A stretch of 64,000 bases of DNA from an uncultured Clostridium sp. (lineage in GTDB: Bacteria > Bacillota > Clostridia > TANB77 > CAG-508), in NCBI GenBank assembly GCA_948470605.1, contig CAOKPI010000002.1:19015-83014 (forward strand), in the 5' to 3' direction. Of this stretch, positions 4,777 through 56,310 are shown in pieces; positions within the stretch are counted from its first letter, which is position 1; each line of letters opens with the position of its first letter. Below the pieces are notes generated by a model, which searched no databases, was not told the DNA's origin, and saw nothing but the letters and a program-made list of their open reading frames with translations. Made by a program: the position numbers and the translations under genes.

Positions 4777-5784
4777 ATGAAAGAATTTAATTATCAAGAT
4801 TATTTAAAGTATCAAAAATTGAAAGCTAAAGAAAACAATAGTCTGTATGAATTACGAGAACCAGAGGAGAAATATCATGTACATCAACCACATGATAAAA
4901 TTTTTAAAACAGTGCTAAATGAAAAAAGGGAAATGGTGGAATTAATAAATAGAGTATTAGAGTTGAAAACAAAATTAAAGGAAGAAGAGATAGAAATATT
5001 TAATAATGAACATATCAGTTATATGTTTGAAGGTAGTGTATCAGATATCGTTTATAAAATGAAGGAAAAAGAAATATTTTTTTTAATTGAACATCAACAA
5101 AAAATTGACTATGATATGCCAAAAAGAATTTTAGAGTATGAAGTAGAAATTATAAAACAAGCAACGAGAGGAAAGAAGATGACAAAACAAGAACATAAGT
5201 TACCAAGAGTCATACCAATTGTTATCTATACTGGTAGTGGGAAATGGAATGTCGAGAAATATATAGAAGAGTGTCAAGAGATATTATCAAAGGCAGATTG
5301 CGTGAGGTTAGGAGAGTATTATGTATTAGATGTTAATAATTATACAAAGGAAGAATTGGAGAAAGATAATTTGTTTTTGTCTAAAATGTTGTTGCTAGAA
5401 AAATTAAAAACAGGAGAGGAAATATATCATATGTTAAATACTGCGATTGAGAAGGAAAATGACGAGAGAAATAAAGCTATTTTAAAAAGAATTATTGCTT
5501 TTATTTTAGATGAAAAGTTAAGTTTAGAAAATAGAGAAAAATTATTAAAAAAATTAGAAGGAGGAAAGAAAGATATGGTTTTAGAAGTGATTAGGAAAGA
5601 AAATGAAAGATTAATAAAAAAAGGAAAAGTAGAAGGGAAAATAGAAGGAGAAATAGAAATTTTAAAACGAGCGGTTAAAAATATGTTACAATTTGGAGAA
5701 GACGAAGAAAAAATTATGAAATATATCGGTATCAACAAAGAAGAATTAGGAAGAATAAAAAGAATGTTAAAAACAATTATTTGA
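4777..5784 (+). CDS. Rpn-family recombination-promoting nuclease/putative transposase (YhgA-like, PD-(D/E)XK)
   Basis: It has N-terminal HDKIFKTVL and FFLIEHQQKIDYDMPKRILEY motifs characteristic of Rpn/YhgA proteins. The C-terminus is a charged coiled coil. Confidence 0.7.
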   Translation: MKEFNYQDYLKYQKLKAKENNSLYELREPEEKYHVHQPHDKIFKTVLNEKREMVELINRVLELKTKLKEEEIEIFNNEHISYMFEGSVSDIVYKMKEKEIFFLIEHQQKIDYDMPKRILEYEVEIIKQATRGKKMTKQEHKLPRVIPIVIYTGSGKWNVEKYIEECQEILSKADCVRLGEYYVLDVNNYTKEELEKDNLFLSKMLLLEKLKTGEEIYHMLNTAIEKENDERNKAILKRIIAFILDEKLSLENREKLLKKLEGGKKDMVLEVIRKENERLIKKGKVEGKIEGEIEILKRAVKNMLQFGEDEEKIMKYIGINKEELGRIKRMLKTII

Positions 5785-16261: not shown

Positions 16262-18578
16262 TTAACATGAGGATTTCCTTTTAAAAATTGATGAATACCG
16301 ATTTCTTAATTTTCCAGTACCCTTACCATGAACAATTCTGACTGTTTGAAGCTTACTAAGAGAAGCATCATCTAAAAATTTATCAATCACAAAAATAGAT
16401 TCTTCCACATGTAATCCAATCACATTTATTTCTGATTTTATCATTCTGGTTTTTGAAATAGAAGAAACACTCGTATTATTTACAGCAGAAGAACTGGTAT
16501 TTTTATTCGTTTTATGGGGTAATGTTAGGAATGCAACTGACACATTCATTTTTAAATTTCCCACTTGTACTTGAACCTCATTGGATTTAGAAACATGAGA
16601 AAGCACGATACCATTTTGACCAAAACTTGTTATAAATACTTCCATATTTGGTTTAATATCCTTTGCTTCTAAAGCATTTTTTGAATTGGTTAAAGGATGG
16701 ATAGTATTTGTCATAGCAGTGAGAGGAATCTCTTTAATCTTAACATTTAATGTATTCCTAGCATTTTCTAAATCTTTTCTATTTGTAGAAGAAGACATTT
16801 CTTTTATCATGTGATTGGCATCTTCTTTTGCTTGTATCAAAATATTCCTAGCTTCTATTTTAGCATGTTGGATGATATCTTGTTCTTGTTGTTTTAATTC
16901 TTTATTTTCTTTTTCTAAAGATTTTCTTAAATTAGAAATACGTTCTAACTCCTGCGAAATTTGTAATTTTTCTTTTTCTAGGGAAGATTTGTTATCATAA
17001 ATATTTTTTAATAAGTTTTCGATATCAATTTGATTCGATGTCATAAAAGATTGGGCTTTTGCAACAATAGCTTCATCTAATCCCAATTTTCGACTAATGG
17101 CAAAAGCATTACTTTTTCCAGGAATACCAACTAGTAGTTTATAAGTAGGGCTTAGTGTGGAAAGATTAAATTCAACAGAAGCATTTTCAAAACCATCTGT
17201 TACTAAAGCATATTGTTTTAATTCCTGATAATGAGTGGTAGCAATTGTCAAGCTTCCCATTTCTTTAAAATAGTCTAATAAACTAATAGCAAGATTAGCT
17301 CCTTCTAAAGGGTCAGTACCAGAACCCAATTCATCTACTAAAATTAAGGAATTTTCAGTAGCTTGTTTTGTAATTTCTACGATATTTAGCATATGAGAAG
17401 AAAAAGTGCTCAAAGAATCAAGAATACTTTGGTCATCTCCAATATCAGCAAAAATTTGGTCAAAAACATAAACGCTAGAATTTTCATCACAGGGAATATT
17501 AAGACCACAGCATGCCATACAAGTTAAAAGACCGACGGTTTTTAGCGTAACCGTTTTACCACCTGTGTTGGGACCTGTGATTAATAATACAGAAAAATCA
17601 TTGCCTAAATCGATTGAAATAGGAACTACTTTTTCTTTATCAATAAAAGGATGCCTAGCATTTTTAAAATGGATTTCTTTTTTGGTAGTAATGATTGGTG
17701 TAGTAGCTTTTAGCGAGTTTGAGAATTTTGCTTTGGCAAAGATAAAGTCTAATTGGGCAATTAAAGTAACATCTAATTCTAATTCTTCACGATAAGGAGA
17801 AAATAATTCTGTTAATTCTTGCAGAATTTTTTCTATTTCTAATGTTTCTTCTTTTTTCAAACCATTTAATTCATTATTCATTTCAAAAACAGAAATAGGC
17901 TCGATAAAAACAGTAGAACCAGCATTAGAAATATCATGAATAAACCCTTTTATTTGAGAACGATATTCCTCTTTTATAGGAATGACAAATCTGTCATTTC
18001 GAAGGGTAACAATATTTTCTTGGATATATTTTGAATAAGTAGATGAGTGAAGCATGTCATTTAGTTTCGCTCGAATGTCTTGTTCTAATTTTTTTTGTTT
18101 TTTTCGTAAGGATTGTAATGTTTTGGAGGCTCTGTCATCGATGGTATCTTCATCCAAAATGCATTTTGATATTCTATCTGTTATACTTTTATTAGTATAT
18201 AGTTTTGAAAACAGATTAGCCAAAATGGGGTAGTCCGAGTTATCTAAAAAATCTTTCTTAAAATAATCTTTTAATTCTTGTGATAGCTGAAAAATATGAG
18301 CTAGATTTAAAAGAGATTTAGCAGATAAAGGATGATGGCTCTCTATTTTTTTTAATGCTATGGTAATGTCAGCAATTTCAAAAAAGGAAGGAGTGGTATT
18401 ACGGTAGGATAAATTAACAGCTTCACCGCGTTTCTTGTAACAGCTGTTCAACTTTTGCTTTTTCAATGCTAGGTACTAGGGTAGAAGCAAGTTGTTTTCC
18501 TTGTTTGGTAATACAAAAATTGCTTACCATTTCTACGATTTTATAAAATTCTAATTTTTCTAAAAAGTTTGTATTCAT
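16262..18578 (-). pseudogene. mutS2: endonuclease MutS2, disrupted by two +1 frameshifts near 18426-18428 and 16298-16300
   Basis: The true N-terminus MNTNFLEKLEFYKIVE..LLQET, with an AGGAGA RBS, runs into TGA right after CGG. The 734-aa central frame carries the MutS ATPase motif GPNTGGKTV. The Smr C-terminus ([23 protein letters not shown]) lies in a third frame. Each junction reads NNN-CGG-stop or continues as NNN-(C)GGT. Confidence 0.85.
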
Positions 18579-18652
18579 GATTCATCTCCTAAAAATTGAT
18601 AGTAGTATTATACCTAGATTTCTGATAATAGTCAATGTCAATTAACAGGTTT

Positions 18653-19043
18653 GTGACAAGAGGGGCGCCCTTTTTTGTCACACAAAATAATTCAAAAAAG
18701 GTTATTATGATTTTTTATTTGCAACTCCCAACATCACACAGTCTGTAAATTTTTAACAGACTGTAGTTCGTCGGTCCCCACGAATTGTTGCTTCATAAAA
18801 AATATAATAACCTTTGTGAGAAATAAAGGAAATGTGACAAGAGGGGAGTCCTTTTTTGTCACATAAAATAATTCAAAAAAGGTTATTATGATTTTTTATT
18901 TGCAACTCCCAACATCACACAGTCTGTAAATTTTTAACAGACTGTAGTTCGTTGGTCCCCGCGAATTGTTGCTTCATAAAAAATATAATAACCTTTGTGA
19001 GAAATAAAAGAAATGTGACAAAAAAGGGCGCCCCTCTTGTCAC
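18653..19043. repeat. tandem array of 2.15 copies of a 181-bp unit; each unit begins with a GTGACAA..GGGCGCCC..TTGTCAC hairpin and contains the ~110-bp core repeat
   Basis: Units start at 18653, 18834 and 19015, with about 95% identity between them. The terminal hairpin is inverted. The core matches the repeats at 25786-26007 (reverse complement) and 28104-28222. Confidence 0.8.
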
Positions 19044-19141
19044 AACCTATTAATTATGCACTTGCAAAAAAGACGAACTTATGATATAAAGGAAACAGAG
19101 AAAAGATAGAAAGAAAAACATCAGGAAAATGAGGTGAAAAA

Positions 19142-22008: not shown

Positions 22009-22911
22009 ATGCAAGGAATTATCATAGAAAATATCGCTAATTTATATCGAGTTTCCCCACTTACTCCCGGAACCAGTGGGGACAAAATCTATGAAGCAAC
22101 GGCGAGAGGAAAATTCAAAAAAGAAGAAATCTCACCTGTTGTAGGGGACTTTGTTGAATTTGAAATCACAGATGAGGTAAACAAAAAGGCAGTTATCAAC
22201 CAAATATTAGATAGAAAAGTGTATGTAAAAAGACCTAAACTTGCTAATATTACACAAATTGTATTTGTTGTTTCTAGCAAAGACCCTAAGCCAGATTTAT
22301 TGATGTTAGATAAACAATTAGCATTTGCTGAGTTCTTGGGAATTAAATCATTAATTGTATTAAATAAAACAGATTTAGATAGTAAAAAAGAATTTAAAGC
22401 AATTCGAGAAATATATGAGAACATAGGCTATGATGTTATAGAAACAGAAGCAAAAAATCAAAAGGGAATTGACCAACTAAAACATAAATTAAAAAATAAT
22501 GTCAACGCATTTTCTGGCAATTCAGGAGTGGGAAAATCTACTTTGATAAATGGTATTTTTGGACAAGATATGACATTAGAGGGAGAAATTAGTCAAAGGA
22601 ATAAAAGAGGAAAAAATACAACAACAGCTATTAAGTTATATCAAATAGATGATAATACTTATATTGCTGATACACCTGGATTTTCAACATTTTCTATGGA
22701 AGAAATTAAAAGGAAAGAATTAGCCAATTACTTTGTGGAATTTAAAAGTAAGATTGCAAATTGTGAGTTTGTGGGTTGTACTCATATTAAAGAGGAGAAT
22801 TGTGGTATCAAAAAAGCAATACAAAATGGAGAAATTTATCCAGCAAGATATGAAAGATTTTGTAAAATACAACAACAATTAAAAGAAAGAGAGGAAAAAA
22901 AGAAATGGTAG
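22009..22911 (+). CDS. rsgA: ribosome small-subunit-dependent GTPase A
   Basis: It has the circularly permuted GTPase motifs VLNKTDL, GNSGVGKSTLIN and DTPGF, and the zinc finger CEFVGCTHIKEENC. Codons 16-24 (nt 22054-22080) are a GC-rich hairpin homologous to the MITE terminal inverted repeats. Confidence 0.9.
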   Translation: MQGIIIENIANLYRVSPLTPGTSGDKIYEATARGKFKKEEISPVVGDFVEFEITDEVNKKAVINQILDRKVYVKRPKLANITQIVFVVSSKDPKPDLLMLDKQLAFAEFLGIKSLIVLNKTDLDSKKEFKAIREIYENIGYDVIETEAKNQKGIDQLKHKLKNNVNAFSGNSGVGKSTLINGIFGQDMTLEGEISQRNKRGKNTTTAIKLYQIDDNTYIADTPGFSTFSMEEIKRKELANYFVEFKSKIANCEFVGCTHIKEENCGIKKAIQNGEIYPARYERFCKIQQQLKEREEKKKW

Positions 22912-24840: not shown

Positions 24841-25100
24841 ATTACAATTTTAAGTTTCGACTTTTTGCAAGTGAGGGTGGTCATATATCATTTTTGCAAC
24901 ACTGCGTAAGCGACCAGCTAACGCATACTGCCACTGTAATAAGCAAGCTTTAACAGTGGACAGCAAAACGAGCGAAACGAGTGCGATTGGAGCAACGTAC
25001 AGACTAGTATATTTTATTTTGGAAGTTGCGACACACAAAGTGTAAAAAAATGATATATGACCACCCTCACTTGCAAAAAGTCGAAACTTGAAATTACAAT
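24841..25100. mobile_element. 260-bp non-coding element with 55-bp near-perfect terminal inverted repeats and a GC-rich ~150-bp core, abutting the nth stop codon
   Basis: 24841-24895 is the reverse complement of 25046-25100 with 2-3 mismatches. The core GC content is well above the local background. No credible ORF is present: the 115-aa ORF at 24850-25197 is a palindrome artefact. Confidence 0.6.
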
Positions 25101-25735: not shown

Positions 25736-25785
25736 AACATCATCTCCTCGTATGTATTTTACAAAATAAAAGAGAATTCTTCAAT

Positions 25786-26007
25786 GTCCCCACTGGTTCC
25801 GGGTTTAAATGGGGATGCAATTGTAATTATATTTTAAATTAAAAGTTTATTCTATTTTTTATACAGTAACAATTCGGGGGGACCAGCAAGCGTACAGTCT
25901 GTTAAAGATTTACAGACTGTGCGATGCTGGGAGTTACAAATAAAAACTAGAATAAACTTTTTTATAAAAATTAATGCATCCCATTTAAACCCGGAACCAG
26001 TGGGGAC
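25786..26007. mobile_element. 222-bp MITE-like element with nested inverted repeats: an outer ~32-bp repeat GTCCCCACTGGTTCCGGGTTTAAATGGGGATG and an inner ~15-bp repeat, surrounding the conserved ~110-bp core in reverse orientation
   Basis: 25786-25820 is the reverse complement of 25973-26007. The core at 25861-25975 matches the reverse complement of 18706-18810. There is no ORF. Confidence 0.75.
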
Positions 26008-26087
26008 ATTTTCTAATTCTACATAAAGAGGAACAAATAAAGAGAAAAAATAATATAATATACAAAAACAAGGGAGGTAATAATCGT

Positions 26088-26784: not shown

Positions 26785-28071
26785 ATGAATTGTAAAGTAG
26801 AAAAAACAAAAAACGCAAATGAAGTAAAATTAGAAATAACAGTGGAAGCTGAAAAATTTGATGAAGCCATTAAAAAAGTATATTTTAAAAGTGCAAAATA
26901 TTTCAACATACCAGGATTTAGAAAAGGAAAGGCGCCAATGCAAATCGTAGAAAAATATTATGGAAAAGAAATCTTCTACGAGGATGCCTTTAATGAAATA
27001 GTACAAGATGCTTTAGAAGAAGCAGTGGAAGAAAATAAATTAGAAATCGTTAGTAGACCTGACATAGAGGTAACACAAATTGAAAAGGGAAAAGACTTAA
27101 TTTTTGAAGCAATCATGCAAACGAAGCCAGAAATTAAGCTTGGAAAATATAAAGGTATAGAAATTAAAAAAGTTGAGTATAATGTAACGGATGAAGACAT
27201 TGAACATGAATTAGGACATATGCAAGAACACAATTCAAGACTTATCTCAATCGAAGATAGACCAGTAGAAAGTGGAGATATTGCAACCATCGATTTCGAG
27301 GGATTTGCAGATGGGAAAGCATTTGAAGGTGGAAAAGCAGAAGGTCATGAATTAGAAATTGGAAGCAATAGTTTCATTCCAGGATTTGAAGACCAAGTGA
27401 TTGGAATGAAAATTGAAGAAGAAAAAGACATCCAAGTAAAATTCCCAGAGGAATATTTTTCAAAAGATTTAGCGGGAAAAGATGCAATCTTTAAAGTAAA
27501 AGTTCATGAAATTAAGAAAAAAGAATTACCAGAATTAGATGATGAATTTGCGAAAGACGTGAGTGAATTTGATACCTTAAAAGAATTAAAAGAAAGTATC
27601 AAAGAAAAACAACAAAAACAAAATGACGAAAAAGCAAAATACGAAACACAAGAAGCGATTATAAAAGCTGTTTGTGAAGATATTCAAGTAGAAATTCCAT
27701 CTGGAATGGTAGAATCAGAAATTGATAATATGTTAAAAGACATTGAACAAAGATTGTTTTATCAAGGTTTGAAATTAGAACAATATCTTCAAATGATGGG
27801 TAAAACCGAAGAAGAGATGAAAAAAGAATATGAACCTCAAGCAATAGAAGGAATTAAATCAAGATTGGCTTTAGAGGCAGTTATTAAAGCTGAAAAAATA
27901 GAGGCAACAGATGAAGAAATAGATGAAAAATTAAAAGAAATGGCTAAGAACTACGGAAAAGAAAATGATGAAGAATTCTTGAAAAATGAAAATGTAAGAA
28001 ATTATTTGAAACAAGGATTAGCATCAGAAAAAGCAATTGATTTCTTAGTGGAAAATGCAAAAATAAAATAA
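26785..28071 (+). CDS. tig: trigger factor
   Basis: The N-terminal ribosome-binding signature is GFRKGKAP. A central FKBP-type PPIase region is present. It is 429 aa. Confidence 0.95.
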   Translation: MNCKVEKTKNANEVKLEITVEAEKFDEAIKKVYFKSAKYFNIPGFRKGKAPMQIVEKYYGKEIFYEDAFNEIVQDALEEAVEENKLEIVSRPDIEVTQIEKGKDLIFEAIMQTKPEIKLGKYKGIEIKKVEYNVTDEDIEHELGHMQEHNSRLISIEDRPVESGDIATIDFEGFADGKAFEGGKAEGHELEIGSNSFIPGFEDQVIGMKIEEEKDIQVKFPEEYFSKDLAGKDAIFKVKVHEIKKKELPELDDEFAKDVSEFDTLKELKESIKEKQQKQNDEKAKYETQEAIIKAVCEDIQVEIPSGMVESEIDNMLKDIEQRLFYQGLKLEQYLQMMGKTEEEMKKEYEPQAIEGIKSRLALEAVIKAEKIEATDEEIDEKLKEMAKNYGKENDEEFLKNENVRNYLKQGLASEKAIDFLVENAKIK

Positions 28072-28103
28072 CTAATTAATAATTTTATAAAAGTTTATTA
28101 TAT

Positions 28104-28222
28104 TTTTATTTGTAACTCCCAACTGCATAACAGACTGTAAACAAAATTTCTAAAAATTTTGTACAGTCTATAATTTGTCGGTCCCCCCGAATTGTTACTA
28201 CATAAAAATATAATAAATTTTA
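28104..28222 (+). repeat. solo copy of the ~110-bp core repeat (variant with an extended central hairpin)
   Basis: The sequence is TTTATTTGTAACTCCCAAC..ACAGACTGT..ACAGTCT..GTCGGTCCCCCCGAATTGTTACTACATAAAAATATAATAA. Confidence 0.7.
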
Positions 28223-28364
28223 CAAAAAATATTACAAGTAATAAGATGAAAGGTTGGGGTATAAATTAAGAGGTTAAATTTTAATCCCAGCTTTTTGGAT
28301 TTTATGCTTTTTTATCATTAAAATGTATCTTAATGGATTGATACAAAAAACAAGGAGGAAAATT

Positions 28365-28970: not shown

Positions 28971-28980
28971 AAAGAAAAAT

Positions 28981-29100
28981 GAGACAAGAGGGACAGATTT
29001 CTTTTGTCTCATAAATTTGGATAGAAAAATGTCGAATAAAGAAAATGATAAAAAACGACAAAAAATGTGAGACAAAAGAAACCTGTCCCTATTGTCTCAA
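28981..29100. repeat. 120-bp MITE-like element made of two 32-nt TGAGACAA..GGGACAG../..CTGTCCC..TTGTCTCA hairpins in mutually inverted orientation around a conserved 56-nt spacer, directly upstream of clpX
   Basis: Hairpin A lies at 28981-29012 and hairpin B at 29069-29100. The copy at 38295-38416 has about 90% similarity. Confidence 0.75.
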
Positions 29101-32713: not shown

Positions 32714-32746
32714 ATGTGGGACATTATCTACGTCCCCATGTCCCAA
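32714..32746. repeat. REP-like hairpin TGGGACAT-TATCTACGTCCCC-ATGTCCCA between the response regulator and the kinase
   Basis: It contains the reverse complement of GGGGACGTAGATA, the same core as the elements at 51877-51904 and 53414-53448. Confidence 0.65.
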
Positions 32747-34957: not shown

Positions 34958-35638
34958 ATGAAAAAATTAATTGCCATTATCATAATTTTAGTAATCATTT
35001 TTGTGGGTATGGTTGTATACAAAAACGTTGCTATCAATACTAGCAATAACATTAGTATACAAGAAATCAGCCAAATAGAAACTTATATAACCAAAATTTA
35101 TATGTGGAAAGAAATAACAGGACAAGCACTACCAAACTTTGAGGATATTAATCAAGCAGAAGATGTATGGATATGGGAAGTAGTCAAAAAAAACTTAGAA
35201 GATTATGAATTTTTTTACGAAGAGATACAAGAAAAAGCAAAAGACCTATTTGGAGAAAGATTGACAAAGGAATTTCCAAAAGAAGGAACCGAATATATTA
35301 TCTATGATGAAAAAAACGATAAATATTATGCCGTGGGAATGGGATTAGACCAATTAGAGGATTTGTTTTTATTAAATGAAATTCAAAAAACACCAAATGG
35401 ATACGAGGTGGAAATCATTGAGTATTTAGAAGACTATTCACAGACATTAAATGAAGAAGATGATTTTGTTATTATTAGAAATATAAAGGAAGAAGAAATT
35501 GGGAGAGTTAATAGTACAGAGGAAGAAAAAGTAAAAGAAATGGTTAAGAATCATATAGATAAATTGAGTAAAAAAAAGATAGTTTTAAAATTAGAGAATG
35601 AAAAGTTACAGGTAGAGAAAGTTTATGAAATAGAATGA
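34958..35638 (+). CDS. hypothetical membrane-anchored protein
   Basis: 226-aa ORF with an N-terminal TM helix. The remainder is acidic. Confidence 0.45.
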   Translation: MKKLIAIIIILVIIFVGMVVYKNVAINTSNNISIQEISQIETYITKIYMWKEITGQALPNFEDINQAEDVWIWEVVKKNLEDYEFFYEEIQEKAKDLFGERLTKEFPKEGTEYIIYDEKNDKYYAVGMGLDQLEDLFLLNEIQKTPNGYEVEIIEYLEDYSQTLNEEDDFVIIRNIKEEEIGRVNSTEEEKVKEMVKNHIDKLSKKKIVLKLENEKLQVEKVYEIE

Positions 35639-38294: not shown

Positions 38295-38416
38295 ATGAGA
38301 CAATGGGGACAGGTTTGAATTGTCTCATAAATTAAGTAGAAAAATGTCAAAATAAGAAGAAGACACAAAAAGTGACAAAAAAAGTGAGACAATTGAAACC
38401 TGTCCCTATTGTCTCA
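38295..38416. repeat. second full copy of the 120-bp double-hairpin TGAGACAA element, between thyA and folA
   Basis: Hairpin A lies at 38295-38327 and hairpin B at 38385-38416. The spacer is about 85% identical to the copy at 28981-29100. Confidence 0.75.
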
Positions 38417-46081: not shown

Positions 46082-46113
46082 TCTGTGACAACAGGGGCGT
46101 CCCTTTTTGTCAC
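46082..46113. repeat. GTGACAA..GGGGCGTCCC..TTGTCAC hairpin, the same family as the 18653 array hairpins
   Basis: tgtgacaacaggggcgtccctttttgtcacat. Confidence 0.6.
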
Positions 46114-46282
46114 ATTCAAATTATTGATAAAAGGTTATTATAGTAAAAAAAAACAGAGAGAACTCTGTTTTTTATATTGTAGGAAAGTTCTCCTAGTAGG
46201 AGGGCTTTCTGTACAAGATAAATATGGGAATTTATAGAATTTCTTTGCGGTTGCCACCGCTTAGAAATTCTTAAATTCGTTT

Positions 46283-46579
46283 TTATAAAACTGTTTTTTT
46301 TCTTTTGTTTTCCACTGCTGGAGGAATTAATGGGGAATAGGAGTCTCCATCAAAAACCTCAACTTCAACGGTTCTAGTTAATACATCTGTATAACTATAA
46401 GTAACATTTCTATCATTTTCTTCATATTTTACAATGAAAATATTTGGATAGGCTTTTTCTATTGTAGCTTCTTTTTCAAAGGCTTTACTTCTTCCTAAAG
46501 AGCCTTTTACGATTATCTTTTGACCCACTTTATCTAAGATGTCTGTTTTTAGATTTGTTATATCTGTACGACAAATCAT
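46283..46579 (-). CDS. veg: Veg (biofilm formation stimulator, DUF1021)
   Basis: The sequence KIIVKGSLGRSKAFEKEATIEKAYPNIFIVKYEE..VTYSYTDVLTRTVEV matches the B. subtilis Veg family. Confidence 0.8.
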   Translation of the reverse strand: MICRTDITNLKTDILDKVGQKIIVKGSLGRSKAFEKEATIEKAYPNIFIVKYEENDRNVTYSYTDVLTRTVEVEVFDGDSYSPLIPPAVENKRKKTVL

Positions 46580-51300: not shown

Positions 51301-51894
51301 CAAATTGATGCACAAGCAACTATTAATACTATGCAATTACGAGAGTTAGATGAGCAGATGAGTTCACAAATGTTAATGGAAGAAGGAGTAAGAAATGAGA
51401 AACCAAAATTTGTGGATGGGCAAAAAATAAAATATATAGGAATTATTACTTCGATTAAAAAGAAATATACAAAAAATAATAAGATTATGGCTTTTGTTAC
51501 GATAGAAGATTTATATGGTACAGCTGAAATCATTGTATTTGAGAATGCTTACTTAACAGCAGGTAAGAGTTTAGTGGAAGAAAATATTGTTGTGGTCCAT
51601 GGTCGTTTGAGCATTCGAGAAGATGATACGACTACTATTATTGCTAATGAATTAAAAGATTTTGGCAATCAAAAACAGAAGATTTTTACCCTTGATATTA
51701 CAAATGCTAATGACGAACAAAAGGAAAAGTTAAGAGGGGCTTTGCGATATTTTAATGGGGATAGAAATAATATGAATGTGCAAATTAGGATAGAAGAAGA
51801 ACTAAAACCATGTGGACAGATTTATTGGACAGAGCAGATTCAAGGAGTGTTTGAAGATATTTTGGGAAAAGAAAATGTGGACATGGGGACGTAG
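48313..51894 (+). CDS. dnaE: DNA polymerase III alpha subunit (DnaE-type)
   Basis: The PHP domain is HLHIHSEFSLLDGA. The polymerase core motifs are GPGRGSGAGS and PDFDVDF. An OB-fold C-terminus is present. It is 1193 aa. The last 5 codons and the stop lie inside a REP-like hairpin. Confidence 0.95.
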   Translation: MSKFVHLHIHSEFSLLDGANRIKDLPVRAKELGMEAIAITDHGAMYGAIDFYKACKKEGIKPIIGCEVYVAPRSRFDKEPNIDNRYNHLILLAKNQQGYQNLSKLVSIGFVDGYYYKPRIDIEVLEKYHEGLICLSACLAGSVNQSLLKGDNEKAEEIALWHKKVFGEDYYIEIQNNGIKEQVLANQKLIALARKLEIPLVATNDAHYLKREDAYNHEVLLCIQTGKRMSDMDRMRFETDELYVKSPEEMIEYFKSFPDAIENTVKIAEKCNVEFEFGHTILPNYDVPEEFPTHYDYFKKLCDDGIKNRYGENPSQEILDRMEYELGVIQKMGYVDYFLIVWDFIHYAKTHGIPVGPGRGSGAGSIIAYAIEITDIDPMKYGLLFERFLNPERISMPDFDVDFCYEHRQDVIDYVSEKYGHDHVSQIITFGTMAAKMVIRDVARVLDVAYAEADSLAKMIPNELHITIQKALEQNKELKERYETDETVKKVLDIAMALEGMPRQASTHACGVVITKEPVDTYVPLYVRDDQISTQYIMTTLEELGLLKMDFLGLRTLTVIQDTIDLVKENRGIDVEFDKEMADPKVYKLWQEGKSCGIFQFESQGMTNFMKELKPDCLEDLIAGVSLYRPGPMDQIPRYVKGKLNPGHNEYTHPRLEPILNVTYGCMVYQEQVMQIVRDLAGYSLGRADLVRRAMGKKKLDVMAKEREVFIHGQVDDEGNVVVPGCVRNGIDEASANKIFDEMAEFAKYAFNKSHAACYAVIAYRTAYLKAYYPAEFMAATLNSFLGNLDKIPQYIDECKLLGIEILKPEINKSDAKFTTEYDGEFGESDPKLPISKKQSTTELLSQSKAKIRFGLGSIKNVGTVPVNSVVKERRENGPYKSFTDFCERIADEAVNKKCIESLIKAGAFDEFEQTRSTLLASFEGIIDSIQSSKKRGLAGQVSMFDLGSEQEKEEMNEVKYKFYEQEEMSNKELLSIEKEMLGIYISGHPLEKLRSQIDAQATINTMQLRELDEQMSSQMLMEEGVRNEKPKFVDGQKIKYIGIITSIKKKYTKNNKIMAFVTIEDLYGTAEIIVFENAYLTAGKSLVEENIVVVHGRLSIREDDTTTIIANELKDFGNQKQKIFTLDITNANDEQKEKLRGALRYFNGDRNNMNVQIRIEEELKPCGQIYWTEQIQGVFEDILGKENVDMGT

Positions 51895-51904
51895 ATGATG
51901 TCCC
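51877..51904. repeat. REP-like hairpin GTGGACATGGGGACGTAGATGATGTCCC overlapping the dnaE stop
   Basis: It carries the GGGGACGTAGAT core in plus orientation and is inverted relative to the copy at 53414-53448. Confidence 0.65.
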
Positions 51905-52350: not shown

Positions 52351-52364
52351 ATAAAATAAGATTG

Positions 52365-52425
52365 CTACACTGCAATGGTTTCATTTATTTGTGAGAAAGT
52401 AAAATGAAACCATTGTAGTGTAGTA
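52365..52425 (+). terminator. very long hairpin (22-bp stem, 1 mismatch) after the PAS gene; a terminator or structured RNA
   Basis: ctacactgcaatggtttcattt..aaatgaaaccattgtagtgtag. Confidence 0.5.
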
Positions 52426-52574
52426 ATTTCTATCACTTATTATACTATGCTATTAAACAAAGCTTTTCAAAATATTTAAACATAGGATATTTAAAAATTC
52501 ACAAAAAAGCGTGCAATTTTATGGGAAATGTGATACCATAATTATACGAAAATCATTTTAATAATTTTATCAAG

Positions 52575-53414
52575 TTGTTTTATTCAAATAATTTTAATCA
52601 TGAACTAAATCCAATCATTAAAAAACAAAAAGAGGAGGTGAATGCCATACCGAGAGTAGCAAGAAAAAATCATATAAGTCAATATTTTCATATTGTTGTT
52701 AAGGGAATAAATGCAGAATATATATTTAGAAAAAAAGAGTATATGGAAAAATATAAGAATTTATTGAAAAAGAATGCAAAGAATCATCAAATCAATATAC
52801 TTGCTTACTGTATTATGAATAATCATGCCCATATATTATTATATACAAAAGAAAAAACTGAAATGGCTAGTTTTATGCAAAAAACCAATACTAGCTATGC
52901 TAAATATTATAATTTTTATGAAGATAGAGAGGGATATGTTTTTAAAGGACGATATTATACACAAAATATTTTATCATTAAAACAATTATATAATTGTTTG
53001 GTTTATATCCATAAAAATCCAATAAAGGCAAATTTAGTAACCAAAATGGAAGATTATCCGTTTTCAAGTTATCACGAATTCTTTAAAGATAAAGAGATAA
53101 TAGATGAACAAAGTATAAAATTGTTAGAATTAAAATTAGATAATTATTATAATGATTTAATAAAAATACATAGAATGGAAGATATTACAGATATATTTGA
53201 TATAAAAGAATACATAGATGCCCAACAAATCTTAAGAGAATATGAAAATAATTACAAGCAACCAATTAAAAAATTGAAGGAACAAAACGAAATTTTAGAA
53301 AAGATAATTGTTGATTTAAATGAAAAGGCAGGAATGCCAATTAGAAAGATAGCAGAAAAGATAAGTGTTAATAAAAACAAAGTGAATAAAATTTTAAAAG
53401 AAAAAAGAAAATAG
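52575..53414 (+). CDS. Y1 HUH transposase-family protein (IS200/RAYT-like REP-associated tyrosine transposase) with a C-terminal HTH-like extension
   Basis: The HUH motif is NNHAHILL. The catalytic Tyr context is FKGRYYTQNI. The N-terminal FHIVVKG is typical of the Y1_Tnp fold. The gene is flanked by inverted GGGGACGTA[G/C]AT hairpins. Confidence 0.65.
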   Translation: MFYSNNFNHELNPIIKKQKEEVNAIPRVARKNHISQYFHIVVKGINAEYIFRKKEYMEKYKNLLKKNAKNHQINILAYCIMNNHAHILLYTKEKTEMASFMQKTNTSYAKYYNFYEDREGYVFKGRYYTQNILSLKQLYNCLVYIHKNPIKANLVTKMEDYPFSSYHEFFKDKEIIDEQSIKLLELKLDNYYNDLIKIHRMEDITDIFDIKEYIDAQQILREYENNYKQPIKKLKEQNEILEKIIVDLNEKAGMPIRKIAEKISVNKNKVNKILKEKRK

Positions 53415-53448
53415 GGGACAAAATGTACGTCCCCATGTCCTCCATGTC
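53414..53448. repeat. REP-like hairpin GGGGACAAAATGTACGTCCCC plus ATGTCC repeats between the transposase stop and the mgtA stop
   Basis: The reverse-complement core is GGGGACGTACAT, inverted relative to the copy at 51877-51904. Confidence 0.65.
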
Positions 53449-56109
53449 CTAAATCCATTCACCATATTTTTTCATATAAATCTTTTTAGCAAAAATGGCC
53501 ACAAAGCAATAAAGAAGAGTAATTGCAAAAATCAAGAAAATATATTTTGTAGCAATTGGTACAAATCCAAGTAAATTTCCTAAACCAGTAAAAGGAACCA
53601 AAATTCCAATAATAATTAAAGAAATAGAGGAAATATAAACAGCTTTATGGGCATTACTTTGTACAAATGGCAATTTAGCGGTACGAATGATATGCATGCC
53701 TACTAAATTGGAGGTGATGCTATAACTAAACCAAATGGTTTGGAAAGTAGCGACATCTCTTACTTGGAAAATGAACCAAAGAGAGGCAAATACAAGCATA
53801 TCAAAGGCAGAGCTAAGTGGTCCCATAAAAAACATAAATTCTTTTAGACTCTTGATGGAAAATGTTTTTGGCTTCTGTAAAGATTCTTTGTCTACATGGT
53901 CAAAAGGTAAAGTCAATTGTCCAAAATCATATAATAAACCTTCTACTAATAATTGAATAGGTGTTTCTGGTAAAAAAGGTAGCAAAGCACTAGCAATGAC
54001 GACAGAAACGACTTCTCCAAAGTTGAAACTAGTTGCTAATTTAATATATTTCATAAGATTCACATAGGTACGTCTTCCTTCTGTGACACCATCTAGTAAT
54101 ACATTTAAGTCTTTTTCTAATAAGATAATATCAGCAGCTTCTTTGGCAATATCAACTGCGGTATCAACAGAAATTCCAACATCGGAATTGGTAAGGGAAG
54201 GGCTATCATTAATGCCATCTCCCATATAGCCTACGACATTTCCGGATTCTCTTAAAAGCCTTACAATTCTAGCTTTTTGAATTGGAGAAAGTTTGGCGAA
54301 TATATTGGTTTTCTTCAATAATCGTAAAACAGCAACATCGGTTAATTTATCCAGTTTACTTCCTAATACAATATTTTTAGAGTTAATACCGACTTTATTA
54401 CAAATACATCTTGTAACTTCTGCATTATCTCCTGTTAAAACCATGACACGAATGCCAGCACGATTTAATTTTTCGATGGACTCTTTGGCACTTTCCTTTG
54501 GAGGGTCTAAAAATCCAATAAATCCTAATAATATCATATTTTTTTCGTCAGCCACTGAAAAGTTTTCGATGTTAGTAATATCATTTTTTTGACATACAGC
54601 TACGACTCTTAGTCCATCTTCATTTAATTTCTTGCTAATTTGTCTGATATTTTCTTTGATTTCTTTCGTGATAGGAGAAACTTTTCCTTTATAATCAATC
54701 ATGGTACAAATGCTTAGAATTTCTTCCACAGCACCTTTGGTGATTAATTGCTTTTTTGTACCATCACTTACGACAACAGATAAACGCCTACGAGAAAAGT
54801 CAAAAGGAATTTCATCTATTTTTTTATATTTTTCTGAAATCTCTTTCATGTTATTTTCAAAAGCTCTTTGGATAACAGCTTCATCAATATTTCCTTTTAA
54901 TCCAGTTTGAAAGTAGGAATTTAAAAAGGCATGTTTTAAAACTCTAGTATCTTCTTCTCCTTGAACATCTAGATATTTTTCTAATACAATTTTATCCTCT
55001 GTTAAGGTTCCTGTTTTATCGGTACATAAGATGTTCATAGCACCAAAATTCTGAATGGAATCTAGCTTTTTCACAATGGTTTTTTTCTTAGACATTCGGA
55101 TAGCACCTTTGGACAAGCTAGAGGACAAAATAACAGGTAATAGGAGAGGGGTAATCCCAATGGCGATTGCCACAGCAAAAGTAAATGCTGTAATGATATC
55201 ATGTTTCCAAGCGTTTAGTAAAAAGACGATAGGAATCATGATTAACATGAAACGAATTAACAATCTACTAATGCTTTCAATTCCTTTTTGGAAAGCGGTT
55301 TTAGGTTTTCCAAGAGTTAGGGTGTGAGCTACTTTACCAAAGTAAGTAGAGTCAGCTGTTTTGATGACAATTCCTTTGGCACTTCCTGAAATAACATTAG
55401 TTCCCATGAAACAAATGGTGTCTAAGTCTGCAATACTATCTAAATTTTCTATCGATGTTTCGGTTTCCACAAGCTTTTTAACACTATCGGATTCACCAGT
55501 TAAAGAGGATTGTCCAACATATAAATCTTTTGCCTCAATTACTCTTAAGTCAGCTGGAATCATACTACCAGCAGAAAGAAATACGACATCTCCTAAGGTG
55601 ATTTCACGAATGGGAATTTCAATTTTTTCTCCATTACGAAGCACAGTGGTTGTGGTTGCTACCAGCTGTTTTAATTCTTCTGCTGCTTTATTAGAACGAT
55701 ATTCCTCGAAAAAGTCTAATAAAGTGCTTGCTGTGACTAAGATAGCAATTACAATAATATTGGCATAACTTGGCGTGGGTGGCAAATAAATATCGGTATA
55801 AATTAAAATAGCTACAATCCCAAGTAAAATACAATTAAAAGGGGTAAATAGGCTTTCTAAAAAATAGTGATACCACTTTTTGGGTTTGGCTTGCTTAATT
55901 TCATTCAATCCTAAATTACGAAGCCTTTCTTCTGCTTCACTAGAGGAAAGTCCTTCTTCTTTTACTTTGTATTTTTTAATAAAATCTTCTTTGGGCAATG
56001 TGGCTTCTTGCCCATATAATTTAGTAACATTTACTTCGTCTTTGGTTGTATTGTTTGACAAATTAATCATCTCCATTTTTCTTAGTTCTAGGAAAGTGCA
56101 TTTATGCAC
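53449..56109 (-). CDS. mgtA: magnesium-translocating P-type ATPase
   Basis: The phosphorylation site is CTDKTGTLT. Other motifs are MLTGD and GDGINDSPSL. Ten TM segments are present. The start is GTG at 56109 or ATG at 56076. Confidence 0.9.
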   Translation of the reverse strand: MHKCTFLELRKMEMINLSNNTTKDEVNVTKLYGQEATLPKEDFIKKYKVKEEGLSSSEAEERLRNLGLNEIKQAKPKKWYHYFLESLFTPFNCILLGIVAILIYTDIYLPPTPSYANIIVIAILVTASTLLDFFEEYRSNKAAEELKQLVATTTTVLRNGEKIEIPIREITLGDVVFLSAGSMIPADLRVIEAKDLYVGQSSLTGESDSVKKLVETETSIENLDSIADLDTICFMGTNVISGSAKGIVIKTADSTYFGKVAHTLTLGKPKTAFQKGIESISRLLIRFMLIMIPIVFLLNAWKHDIITAFTFAVAIAIGITPLLLPVILSSSLSKGAIRMSKKKTIVKKLDSIQNFGAMNILCTDKTGTLTEDKIVLEKYLDVQGEEDTRVLKHAFLNSYFQTGLKGNIDEAVIQRAFENNMKEISEKYKKIDEIPFDFSRRRLSVVVSDGTKKQLITKGAVEEILSICTMIDYKGKVSPITKEIKENIRQISKKLNEDGLRVVAVCQKNDITNIENFSVADEKNMILLGFIGFLDPPKESAKESIEKLNRAGIRVMVLTGDNAEVTRCICNKVGINSKNIVLGSKLDKLTDVAVLRLLKKTNIFAKLSPIQKARIVRLLRESGNVVGYMGDGINDSPSLTNSDVGISVDTAVDIAKEAADIILLEKDLNVLLDGVTEGRRTYVNLMKYIKLATSFNFGEVVSVVIASALLPFLPETPIQLLVEGLLYDFGQLTLPFDHVDKESLQKPKTFSIKSLKEFMFFMGPLSSAFDMLVFASLWFIFQVRDVATFQTIWFSYSITSNLVGMHIIRTAKLPFVQSNAHKAVYISSISLIIIGILVPFTGLGNLLGFVPIATKYIFLIFAITLLYCFVAIFAKKIYMKKYGEWI

Positions 56110-56252
56110 TTGACATAGAAATAAATTATGCGAAGGTTAGATTTTCTTACCATTTTATGGCTTAGAAAATCTTAGCTCCGTTTTTTATTTATAAAGATTA
56201 TACCACTATTTTCAAAAGATTACACAAAAATATAGAAAAAAATATAAAAATA

Positions 56253-56284
56253 TGAGACAATGGGGACAGGTATTAGTTGTCTCA
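56253..56284. repeat. solo TGAGACAATGGGGACAGG..TTGTCTCA hairpin (A orientation) 27 nt upstream of the aminopeptidase start
   Basis: It is near-identical to hairpin A at 38295-38327. Confidence 0.7.
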
Positions 56285-56310
56285 TAAATTGAGAAGAAAA
56301 GAGAGGTATT

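Follow-up and report, generated by a model that had tools for sequence, protein, structure and literature searches.

A 222-bp palindrome from an uncultured Clostridium probably belongs to a family of small non-autonomous mobile elements with a conserved asymmetric core

A near-perfect palindrome of 222 bp occupies positions 25786-26007 of a 64-kb stretch of DNA from an uncultured Clostridium species (assembly GCA_948470605.1, contig CAOKPI010000002.1, positions 19,015 to 83,014; hereafter the window). Outer and inner pairs of arms surround an asymmetric centre. We propose, with a probability of about 0.6, that AT-rich uncultured gut Clostridia harbour a family of small mobile palindromes, non-coding and non-autonomous, of which this element is one copy, and that the copies in the window resemble REPINs (doublets of repetitive extragenic palindromic, or REP, sequences that form hairpins). 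Taken separately, the parts of this proposal differ in strength. That the core element is mobile non-autonomous DNA is very likely. That the 222-bp unit is the family core held inside a REPIN-like hairpin doublet, in a genome with a system like that of REPs and their REP-associated tyrosine transposases (RAYTs), falls a little short of an even chance. A preliminary description of the window had taken the whole unit for a miniature inverted-repeat transposable element (MITE) and had recognized in it a core common to four loci.

The nested inverted repeats around a reverse-oriented core are as that description had them. The outer arms (25773-25813 and 25980-26020) are 41 nt long and 90% complementary, the 32-mer originally quoted corresponding to 25786-25817 and 25976-26007; the inner arms are 32 nt long and 84% complementary. 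The 222-nt element folds with an energy of -107 kcal/mol as RNA (z = -15 against shuffles) and -71.5 kcal/mol as DNA (z = -15.6). Its parts are as follows.

25786..25817, no strand assigned: outer inverted repeat, left arm, a REP-like hairpin unit H2 (GTCCCCACTGGTTCCGGGTTTAAATGGGGATG); its minus strand bears the CATCCCCAT signature
25831..25862, no strand assigned: inner inverted repeat arm, the 3' strand of stem P1 in core orientation; P1 covaries
25866..25937, minus strand: A-core, comprising P2, the 12-nt bulge TCCCCNCGAATT, P3, and P4 with the apical loop (covariance model match 25836-25967, minus strand, 140.6 bits; also fold and motif)
25940..25971, no strand assigned: inner inverted repeat arm, the 5' strand of P1 in core orientation; P1 covaries
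25976..26007, no strand assigned: outer inverted repeat, right arm, H2', an inverted copy of H2

The A-core is a 72-115-nt asymmetric stem-loop module that sits at the exact centre of a long stem. By blastn, the minus-strand core at 25842-25963 is 85% identical to 18694-18815 and 18875-18996, and about 72% identical to 28078-28216. The 19-nt motif GGTCCCCNCGAATTGTTRC occurs four times in the window and never in 100 shuffles. A covariance model built from 98 copies and run with filters off over the 64 kb returned exactly four strong matches, at 98-141 bits. With the same model the opposite strand scored only 19-44 bits, and the core is therefore truly asymmetric. The four cores come in three architectures, the second and third of which are listed here.

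18652..19045, plus strand: composite array H1-A-H1-A-H1', with A-cores at 18690-18821 (129.9 bits) and 18871-19002 (130.2 bits)
18652-18682, 18833-18864 and 19014-19045: H1 hairpins of this array, the last inverted
28082..28228, plus strand: solo A-core with P1 arms only and an enlarged apical hairpin, between tig and clpP (98.4 bits)

The array is a tandem repeat with a period of 181 nt, 2.0 copies and 96% identity. The earlier picture of one core in three architectures, present twice in this array (then placed at 18653) and once alone with an enlarged hairpin (then at 28104), thus stands. Beside the array, mutS2 (16262-18578, minus strand) is split into two overlapping frames (16262-18466 and 18423-18578), which may reflect a frameshift or a sequencing error.

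The A-core is not confined to this genome. A pattern scan with the 19-nt motif, taking one genome per species, returned at least 113 loci (L001-L113). Four of these are chance matches inside genes of GC-rich organisms. The others come from about 23 species-level metagenome-assembled genomes (MAGs) of uncultured Clostridia, a few of them labelled Bacilli, from rabbit, mouse and other guts; a single MAG has 37 cores in the 219 kb retrieved. The elements measure 130-260 bp, are non-coding (spurious 42-aa frames are the only open reading frames inside them) and are dispersed in many copies, which is the size and copy number of a MITE. The preliminary description had held that a lack of further copies, together with conservation at orthologous positions, would speak for a structural RNA; this is not what the census shows. 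Three queries (the 222-bp element, a complete member of the family and the motif of the core) gave only chance AT-rich matches in phages, plasmids and viral contigs.

What the 98 aligned copies share is a structure with a few fixed nucleotides. Across the family GTAACTCCCA and GGTCCCCNCGAATTGTTAC are invariant, and the invariant blocks of the alignment are GTAACTC..A and GGTCCCCNCGAATTGTT.C, the second also written GGTCCCC.CGAATTGTT.C. Between and around these blocks the sequence of the stems varies and complementarity is kept. P1, the long AT-rich outer stem, differs even among copies in one genome. P2 is GTAAC/GTTAC, replaced by GCAAC/GTTGC in four copies, and between P2 and P3 lies the one-sided bulge, all 12 nt of which are invariant. 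P3 is CCAGC/GCTGG, with one pair that is G-C in 51 copies and A-T in 37, and is followed by a 2-bp extension that covaries (GC/GC, GA/TC, AC/GT and AT/AT, read by eye from the alignment). P4 is ACAGTCTGT/ACAGACTGT with variants such as ACCAGCTGT/ACAGCTGGT, and the apical loop may be as short as 3 nt or exceed 100 nt. The P4 hairpin had been singled out as conserved; it is so as a structure with compensatory variants and not as a sequence, invariance belonging to the two blocks.

RNAalifold finds 33 pairs in the 98 copies, 22 of them with compensatory changes. In all, 96.0% of pair cells are paired, a proportion that none of 500 column shuffles attains (80.7%); sliding the partners by 1-3 columns leaves only 37-49% paired. 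Covariation scores 0.381 versus 0.112. Among genomes that are 98% identical in protein, the arms and apical hairpin change symmetrically, a pattern more in keeping with copy replacement or arm-to-arm templating than with compensatory mutations that arose independently.

Evidence of transposition comes from complete members of the family in other genomes. These are about 230-260 bp long, and both arms end in 12-14-bp inverted repeats, GTWACWRTTCAS, situated 51-60 nt (mostly 54-56) outside P2. Directly outside these ends stand 8-bp AT-rich direct repeats. A generic test for inverted repeats with target duplications was swamped by palindromic low-complexity matches (22 observed versus 16-20 in controls), and was replaced by a test specific to the termini. 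This gave perfect 8/8 target duplications beside the GTWAC... termini of nine copies (ATTATTTT, TATAAATT, TATATTAA, TTTTAGAA, AAAATAAT, AATAAATA, TTCTAAAA, TACTACTA and ATATAAAA) and 7/8 matches in four more, with no perfect match in shifted controls; three further cases are visible by eye. Moreover, an orthologous empty site has a single copy of the AT-rich target region, which fits simple insertion. The distribution is patchy: among 80 metagenome loci that carry the tig genes of relatives (78-89% identical in protein, 10-kb flanks), six hold a core, all of them diverged, and in the other 74 none was detected within about 10 kb of tig. The inference that this is mobile DNA is upheld by these duplications and terminal repeats and by orthologous sites that are filled in one genome and empty in another.

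The ends also point to a type of enzyme. ISDge4, which belongs to the ISBst12 group of the IS66 family, carries GTGACTACTCAGCA/GTAACTGCTCAGCA as its terminal repeats and has a direct repeat of 8 bp (PMC12898284). When the ends of our family, GTAACTATTCAG / GTTACTGTTCAG, are set against GTAACTGCTCAGCA / GTGACTACTCAGCA of this single published element, the ISDge4 repeats agree with GTTACTGTTCAG at 11 of 12 positions. Since both the 8-bp duplication and the GTAAC-starting ends match the ISBst12 group, we consider the complete members to be genuine MITEs. Judged by these sequences, the A-core family is probably mobilized in trans by an IS66-type DDE transposase; such an enzyme, most likely of the ISBst12 group, would cut or copy the complete members. 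The A-core elements form a widespread new MITE family with IS66/ISBst12-like ends, and apparently an undescribed one. Ends of the type GTTACWATTCAC also bound other interiors (L019 1366-1618 and L062 1381-1504, one of which holds a GGGGCGAACACTGTTCGCCC hairpin), so that IS66-like ends serve several MITE families.

Could the core instead be a structured non-coding RNA gene, or a cis-acting RNA element such as a stabilizer, terminator or processing site, kept by host selection in repeats that are paralogous and not mobile? The strong covariation and the invariant unpaired nucleotides would suit such a role, as would the strand asymmetry of the model scores (98-141 versus 19-44 bits), the persistence of the core where transposon ends are gone (all four window copies) and a tig-clpP copy at the same site in L046, a related contig. 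The core is also biased to the strand of the flanking genes, by 45:15 in gene pairs and 67:28 by locus. This bias is a hint that transcription or replication imposes a constraint; GC skew follows the gene strand, and the two effects are not separable by skew.

We nevertheless regard this explanation as unlikely. Target-site duplications and terminal inverted repeats exist, genomes carry dozens of copies at non-orthologous sites, and some copies are halves or collapsed remnants. At 18652 and 25786 the neighbouring genes diverge, so that read-through transcription into the copies is not to be expected (the genes on either side of the solo copy are co-directional). Stem mismatches in the RNAalifold table are about 30 G-U versus 28 A-C, and there is therefore no strand-specific RNA signature in the pairing. 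Rfam has no match to the window at gathering thresholds and none to the cores at E values up to 5. For the function of the core, our best guess is that a protein recognizes it and that propagation requires this structure. The main alternative to that guess is a role as RNA, and mobility and an RNA role are not mutually exclusive.

The window copies themselves are unlike complete members in their ends. All four are without GTWAC termini. At 18652 and 25786 only 1-2 of 8 positions match as a target duplication (2 of 8 at 25786), and at 28068/28242 a decayed 6/8 match is possible by eye. The solo copy has P1 only, and at the other two loci the core and P1 are bracketed by an inverted pair of short hairpins. 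The 222-bp unit thus does not behave like a classical MITE that ends in its outer repeats: it has no target duplication, and those repeats are REP-like hairpins that occur singly as well. The proposed check of target-site duplications therefore has a divided outcome, with nine perfect cases in other genomes and none at 18652 or 25786.

Four types of hairpin can be told apart in the window. H1 (TGTGACAAGAGGGGCGCCCTTTTTTGTCACA) brackets the cores of the 18652 array. H2 is found at 25786 and 25976; single units of it occur too, among them those at 22054 and, in L046, at the orthologous site. H3 stands at 32718 (32718-32744), 51879 and 53414. H4 (ATGAGACAA..GGGAC..TTGTCTCAT) stands at 56252 (56252-56290) and in two doublets. 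At 35637 and 63970 there are further hairpins whose loop contains or adjoins GGGGAC/GTCCCC, and hairpins of this kind are scattered through the window as singlets and REPIN-like doublets. In the window GTCCCC/GGGGAC occurs 18 times, versus 4.3 expected from shuffles, and CRTCCCCAT four times, versus 0.42; three of the latter belong to H3 units and the fourth to the outer repeat of the 222-bp element. The form ACGTCCCCATGTCC occurs three times in the 64 kb. REP-flanked composites without target duplications are present in several MAGs.

Several further hairpin loci were observed. Two homologous REPIN-like doublets, at 28979-29099 and 38295-38416, each consist of two inverted H4 units around a spacer of about 55 nt, and one of them lies between clpP and clpX. 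At 46084 a solo H1 is followed by the first 13 nt of an A arm and looks like a collapsed remnant. One hairpin lies inside a gene.

22054..22084, no strand assigned: solo H2-type hairpin, in frame within the rsgA coding sequence

It gives the rsgA product 2-6 (mostly 5-6) extra loop residues (SPLTPGTSGD) relative to all 12 relatives examined.

A candidate enzyme for such hairpins is encoded in the window. Pfam and NCBIfam scans of its unassigned proteins gave two transposase-related matches, at 4777-5784 and 52575-53414, the second of which is flanked by hairpins.

52575..53414, plus strand: RAYT-like Y1 (HUH) tyrosine transposase gene, 279 aa; candidate enzyme for the REP-like hairpins
53414..53449, plus strand: REP-like hairpin (GGGGACAAAATGTACGTCCCCATGTCC...) directly 3' of the RAYT-like gene, carrying ACGTCCCCATGTCC
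51879..51904, minus strand: H3 hairpin upstream of the gene, with the PAS gene in between, in inverted orientation to the hairpin at 53414; carries ACGTCCCCATGTCC

The protein matches PF01797 (E = 1e-9). Its best model is NF047646 (REP-associated tyrosine transposase) at 70 bits, which is below the curated cut-off of 80, versus 21 bits for the IS200 model. Its only PDB match is E. coli TnpA_REP (4ER8), and the motifs HAH and YIHKNP are present. The gene is single copy and lies in a fixed locus (dnaE, PAS, RAYT-like gene, P-type ATPase) in all six displayed of the 12 carrying contigs. Other Clostridia likewise have inverted hairpins with CGTCCCCATGTC around homologues of the gene: an orthologue with 76% identity (L207) has them on both sides, and a homologue with 46% identity at a different locus (L210) has two upstream and one downstream, inverted. 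As far as sequence can tell, inverted hairpins around a RAYT-like gene are the arrangement that defines REP-RAYT systems. RAYT group 1 is reported in Clostridia, and a strong association with REPINs only in groups 2 and 3 (PMC5581495). The statement that the window has no matching transposase was consequently too strong, given a RAYT-like Y1 gene near CRTCCCCAT hairpins; it holds for the expected DDE transposase, which was not found.

Three observations belong to this neighbourhood. The H3 hairpin at 51879-51904 overlaps the 3' end of dnaE, so that the TAG stop of the 1193-aa frame lies inside the hairpin loop; one related contig has a 1197-aa product. A 67-nt near-perfect palindrome (TACACTGCAATGGTTTCATTT.../...AAATGAAACCATTGTAGTGTA) at 52361-52427, between the PAS and RAYT-like genes, has no other copy in the retrieved sequences. 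The protein at 4777-5784 (plus strand) is a YhgA/Rpn-family 'Transposase_31' protein of the PD-(D/E)XK recombination-promoting nuclease type, with homologues in the tig-linked loci L147 and L152.

With hairpins and a RAYT-like gene at hand, one could suppose that the whole family, A-core included, is a REP/REPIN system in which the GGTCCCC bulge is the recognition or cleavage site of the RAYT-like HUH enzyme and all movement passes through single-stranded hairpin DNA. The reverse complement of the bulge, AATTCGNGGGGACC, has the GGGGAC found in the loops of H1-H4 and in the RAYT-flanking hairpins, the arms conserve structure rather than sequence, the core is always central in a palindrome, and REP-flanked composites lack target duplications. 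HUH transposition, however, makes no target duplications, and many copies have perfect 8-bp ones together with IS66-like ends. The A-core-richest genomes show no excess of GGGGAC hairpins (0.27-0.32 per 10 kb), and the core therefore does not depend on them. No RAYT homologue was found in the pattern-scan or tig-related loci L001-L200, a small sample. We think it improbable that REPIN biology accounts for the entire family.

We favour a combination, in which the 222-bp unit would be a REPIN-like doublet with a captured MITE core as its spacer. The window composites may move, or be converted, as single-stranded hairpins without target duplication, and could then decay by palindrome collapse and flip by recombination between arms. 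Comparisons between relatives bear on these steps. Another MAG (L044) has H1-A-H1' in a different genomic setting, where similarity is limited exactly by the ends of H1, and the composite has therefore moved as a unit. In four orthologous comparisons between close relatives, one hairpin stands against hairpin-core-inverted hairpin. The window has H2-A-H2' where L046 has a single H2-like unit. Conversely, the solo H3 at 32718-32744 faces an H3-B-H3' in L046 (7450-7790; 258 nt more) with identical flanks, a difference that either a deletion between GGGACAT direct repeats or an insertion would produce. A composite in L070 faces a solo unit in L075, and the composite in L044 faces H1 plus half a core in inverted orientation in L102. 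Arm inversion and deletion between short direct repeats of the hairpin stems would explain the solo, composite and half states. The solo core between tig and clpP is present in L046; the tig-clpP gap of L077 is too short to hold one.

The phrase 'actively rearranging' in the preliminary description is accurate between closely related species. It does not extend to the same-species contigs L114, L115, L117 and L119, whose elements do not differ in size at any site that a contig covers, with flanks 96-100% identical; insertion polymorphism likewise appears as presence and absence among close relatives and not among these contigs. Two contigs of related assemblies break off at or in repeats, L114 immediately past the array at 18652 and L207 within an H3 hairpin, and such repeats therefore fragment short-read assemblies of the lineage.

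Symmetrical change and tandem duplication also invite the thought that the host itself made these palindromes without any transposition, as when replication slippage or template switching duplicates a bidirectional terminator. H1 scores as terminator-like, the 18652 locus is a tandem duplication, and arm-to-arm templating predicts the symmetrical change of arms and apical hairpin in close relatives. Nevertheless, the same invariant core lies at unrelated loci in about 23 species, target duplications exist, and copies stand between divergent genes. The census and the duplications already contradict such an origin, which we judge very improbable.

A second conserved core in the window shows how far the modules combine.

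24841..25100, plus strand: B-core element, with 55-nt complementary arms around a different conserved asymmetric core

The conserved sequence of the B-core is GCGTAAGCGA...GATTGGAGCAACTTAC...GGAAGTTGCGACACACAAAG, and ATTACAAT is present as a direct repeat at both ends of the element. B shares the architecture of A and occurs dispersed across related MAGs. The A apical loop encloses it in L008, L030 and L049 and, in opposite orientation, in L050. A third repeat, C (GCGAATTTAAGAATTTCTAAGCGGTGGCAACCGC...), lies at 46166-46283, after the 46084 remnant, and is nested in an A element in L044. 'Modular' was an apt word for elements whose modules, B and C within A, are nested and swapped. The window as a whole has 31% G+C and is filled with housekeeping genes. 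A promoter and terminator scan gave no excess and nothing core-specific. The repeats fall in the order mutS2, 18652 array, PP2C phosphatase, prkC, rsgA, rpe, membrane protein, B element and nth, and onwards from nth through the 222-bp element, small membrane protein, rpmB, tig, solo core, clpP and clpX.

This nesting allows a further possibility: the A-core, like the B-core, could be a structure-specific module complete in itself and able to propagate independently of any one transposon. The shells seen around the core are IS66-like ends, REP doublets and a naked stem, with B also in the A apical loop in both orientations, and the A-core is always at the exact centre of its palindrome, with arms that change symmetrically. 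Such a module might be inserted into the apex of existing hairpins or cruciforms, or its palindromes might be built by arm-templated synthesis; a structure-recognizing enzyme, RAYT-like HUH or other, could read the invariant GGTCCCCNCGAATT bulge. We hold this to be doubtful. If true, it would mean a bacterial mobile element for which palindromes, and not sequences, are both target and product.

Several observations weigh against our proposal of a mobile family with REPIN-like copies in the window. No pair of terminal repeats encloses a transposase in the retrieved DNA, and the predicted autonomous partner with the same ends was not found there or in plasmids, phages or viral contigs. No IS66-type transposase lies in the window or in L001-L113, where the only multi-copy open reading frames are orthologues between MAGs. 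(A looser terminal-repeat pattern gave mostly noise. The sole repeat pair enclosing genes, in L108, was rejected as an autonomous candidate: what it encloses are the housekeeping genes that separate one MITE from another.) Conservation of the core exceeds that of the transposon ends, and the core is kept where these are gone, a pattern that simple DDE-MITE biology would not lead one to expect. To this are added the orientation bias towards flanking genes, the sub-threshold RAYT score and the lack of GGGGAC-hairpin enrichment described above. The RAYT-like protein is linked to the A-core by a shared 6-9-nt motif and co-occurrence only. Furthermore, the solo H2 of L046 is only about 70% identical to the window arms while the flanks are about 95% identical, and solo-hairpin sites may be deletion products or landing pads.

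The family gains a name and a model, in the form of an alignment and a covariance model, for an abundant unannotated repeat that breaks assemblies of small AT-rich gut Clostridia. A REP-RAYT-like arrangement is documented in Firmicutes. The same structured module occurs in DDE-type and hairpin-flanked shells, which makes it a natural case for asking what selection on MITEs acts on, and its invariant bulged hairpin is a concrete, testable candidate ligand for a transposase or host factor.

Among known systems, IS66-family MITEs of the ISBst12 group resemble the A-core family in having ends that start GTAAC/GTGAC and are similar to GTAACTGCTCAGCA, in the 8-bp duplication, and in being small, non-coding, multi-copy and intergenic. 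They differ in that the best-conserved part of our family is an internal structured core and not the ends, no parent element was found, and the window copies are without ends and duplications.

Other palindromic repeats offer partial parallels. ERIC, Correia (NEMIS) and the pneumococcal BOX and RUP are imperfect intergenic palindromes of 100-250 bp that may fold in transcripts and take up internal insertions at fixed points; BOX is modular. The A-core family shares the palindromic intergenic build, the modularity and the fixed-point insertions, but it has no sequence similarity to these repeats, another host clade, an invariant one-sided bulge, and B nested in its apical loop. The in-frame H2 of rsgA, adding about 5-6 residues, recalls the Rickettsia palindromic elements, which are palindromic repeats in protein-coding genes; the hairpin here is only about 31 nt, and family and host are different. 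Integron attC sites are alike in conserving structure over sequence, in conserved unpaired bases, in a variable terminal structure and in AAC...GTT at the stem base. We rejected that identity on the mismatch of the RYYYAAC/GTTRRRY core sites (TTGTAAC / GTTACTG here), the lack of cassette arrays and integrase, and the dispersal of copies between housekeeping genes. Ribozymes, retron RNA, plasmid single-strand origins and dif sites were dropped because the motifs did not fit, the context was wrong or Rfam had no match.

The window composites also resemble REP systems. Bacterial interspersed mosaic elements (BIMEs) of type BIME-1 consist of two inverted palindromic units around a conserved linker, a mosaic architecture like that of the composites. 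Differences are the Firmicute host with 31% G+C, the heterogeneous hairpin sequences (H1-H4), a 'spacer' that is a 120-140-nt MITE core with its own stem, and a protein that is longer (279 aa, extended at the C-terminus) and does not reach the curated RAYT threshold. The likenesses lie in short motif-bearing hairpins that occur as singlets and as inverted doublets around a spacer (Bertels 2017, PMC5581495), in hairpins that flank a single-copy Y1/HUH gene in inverted orientation, and in the lack of a target duplication.

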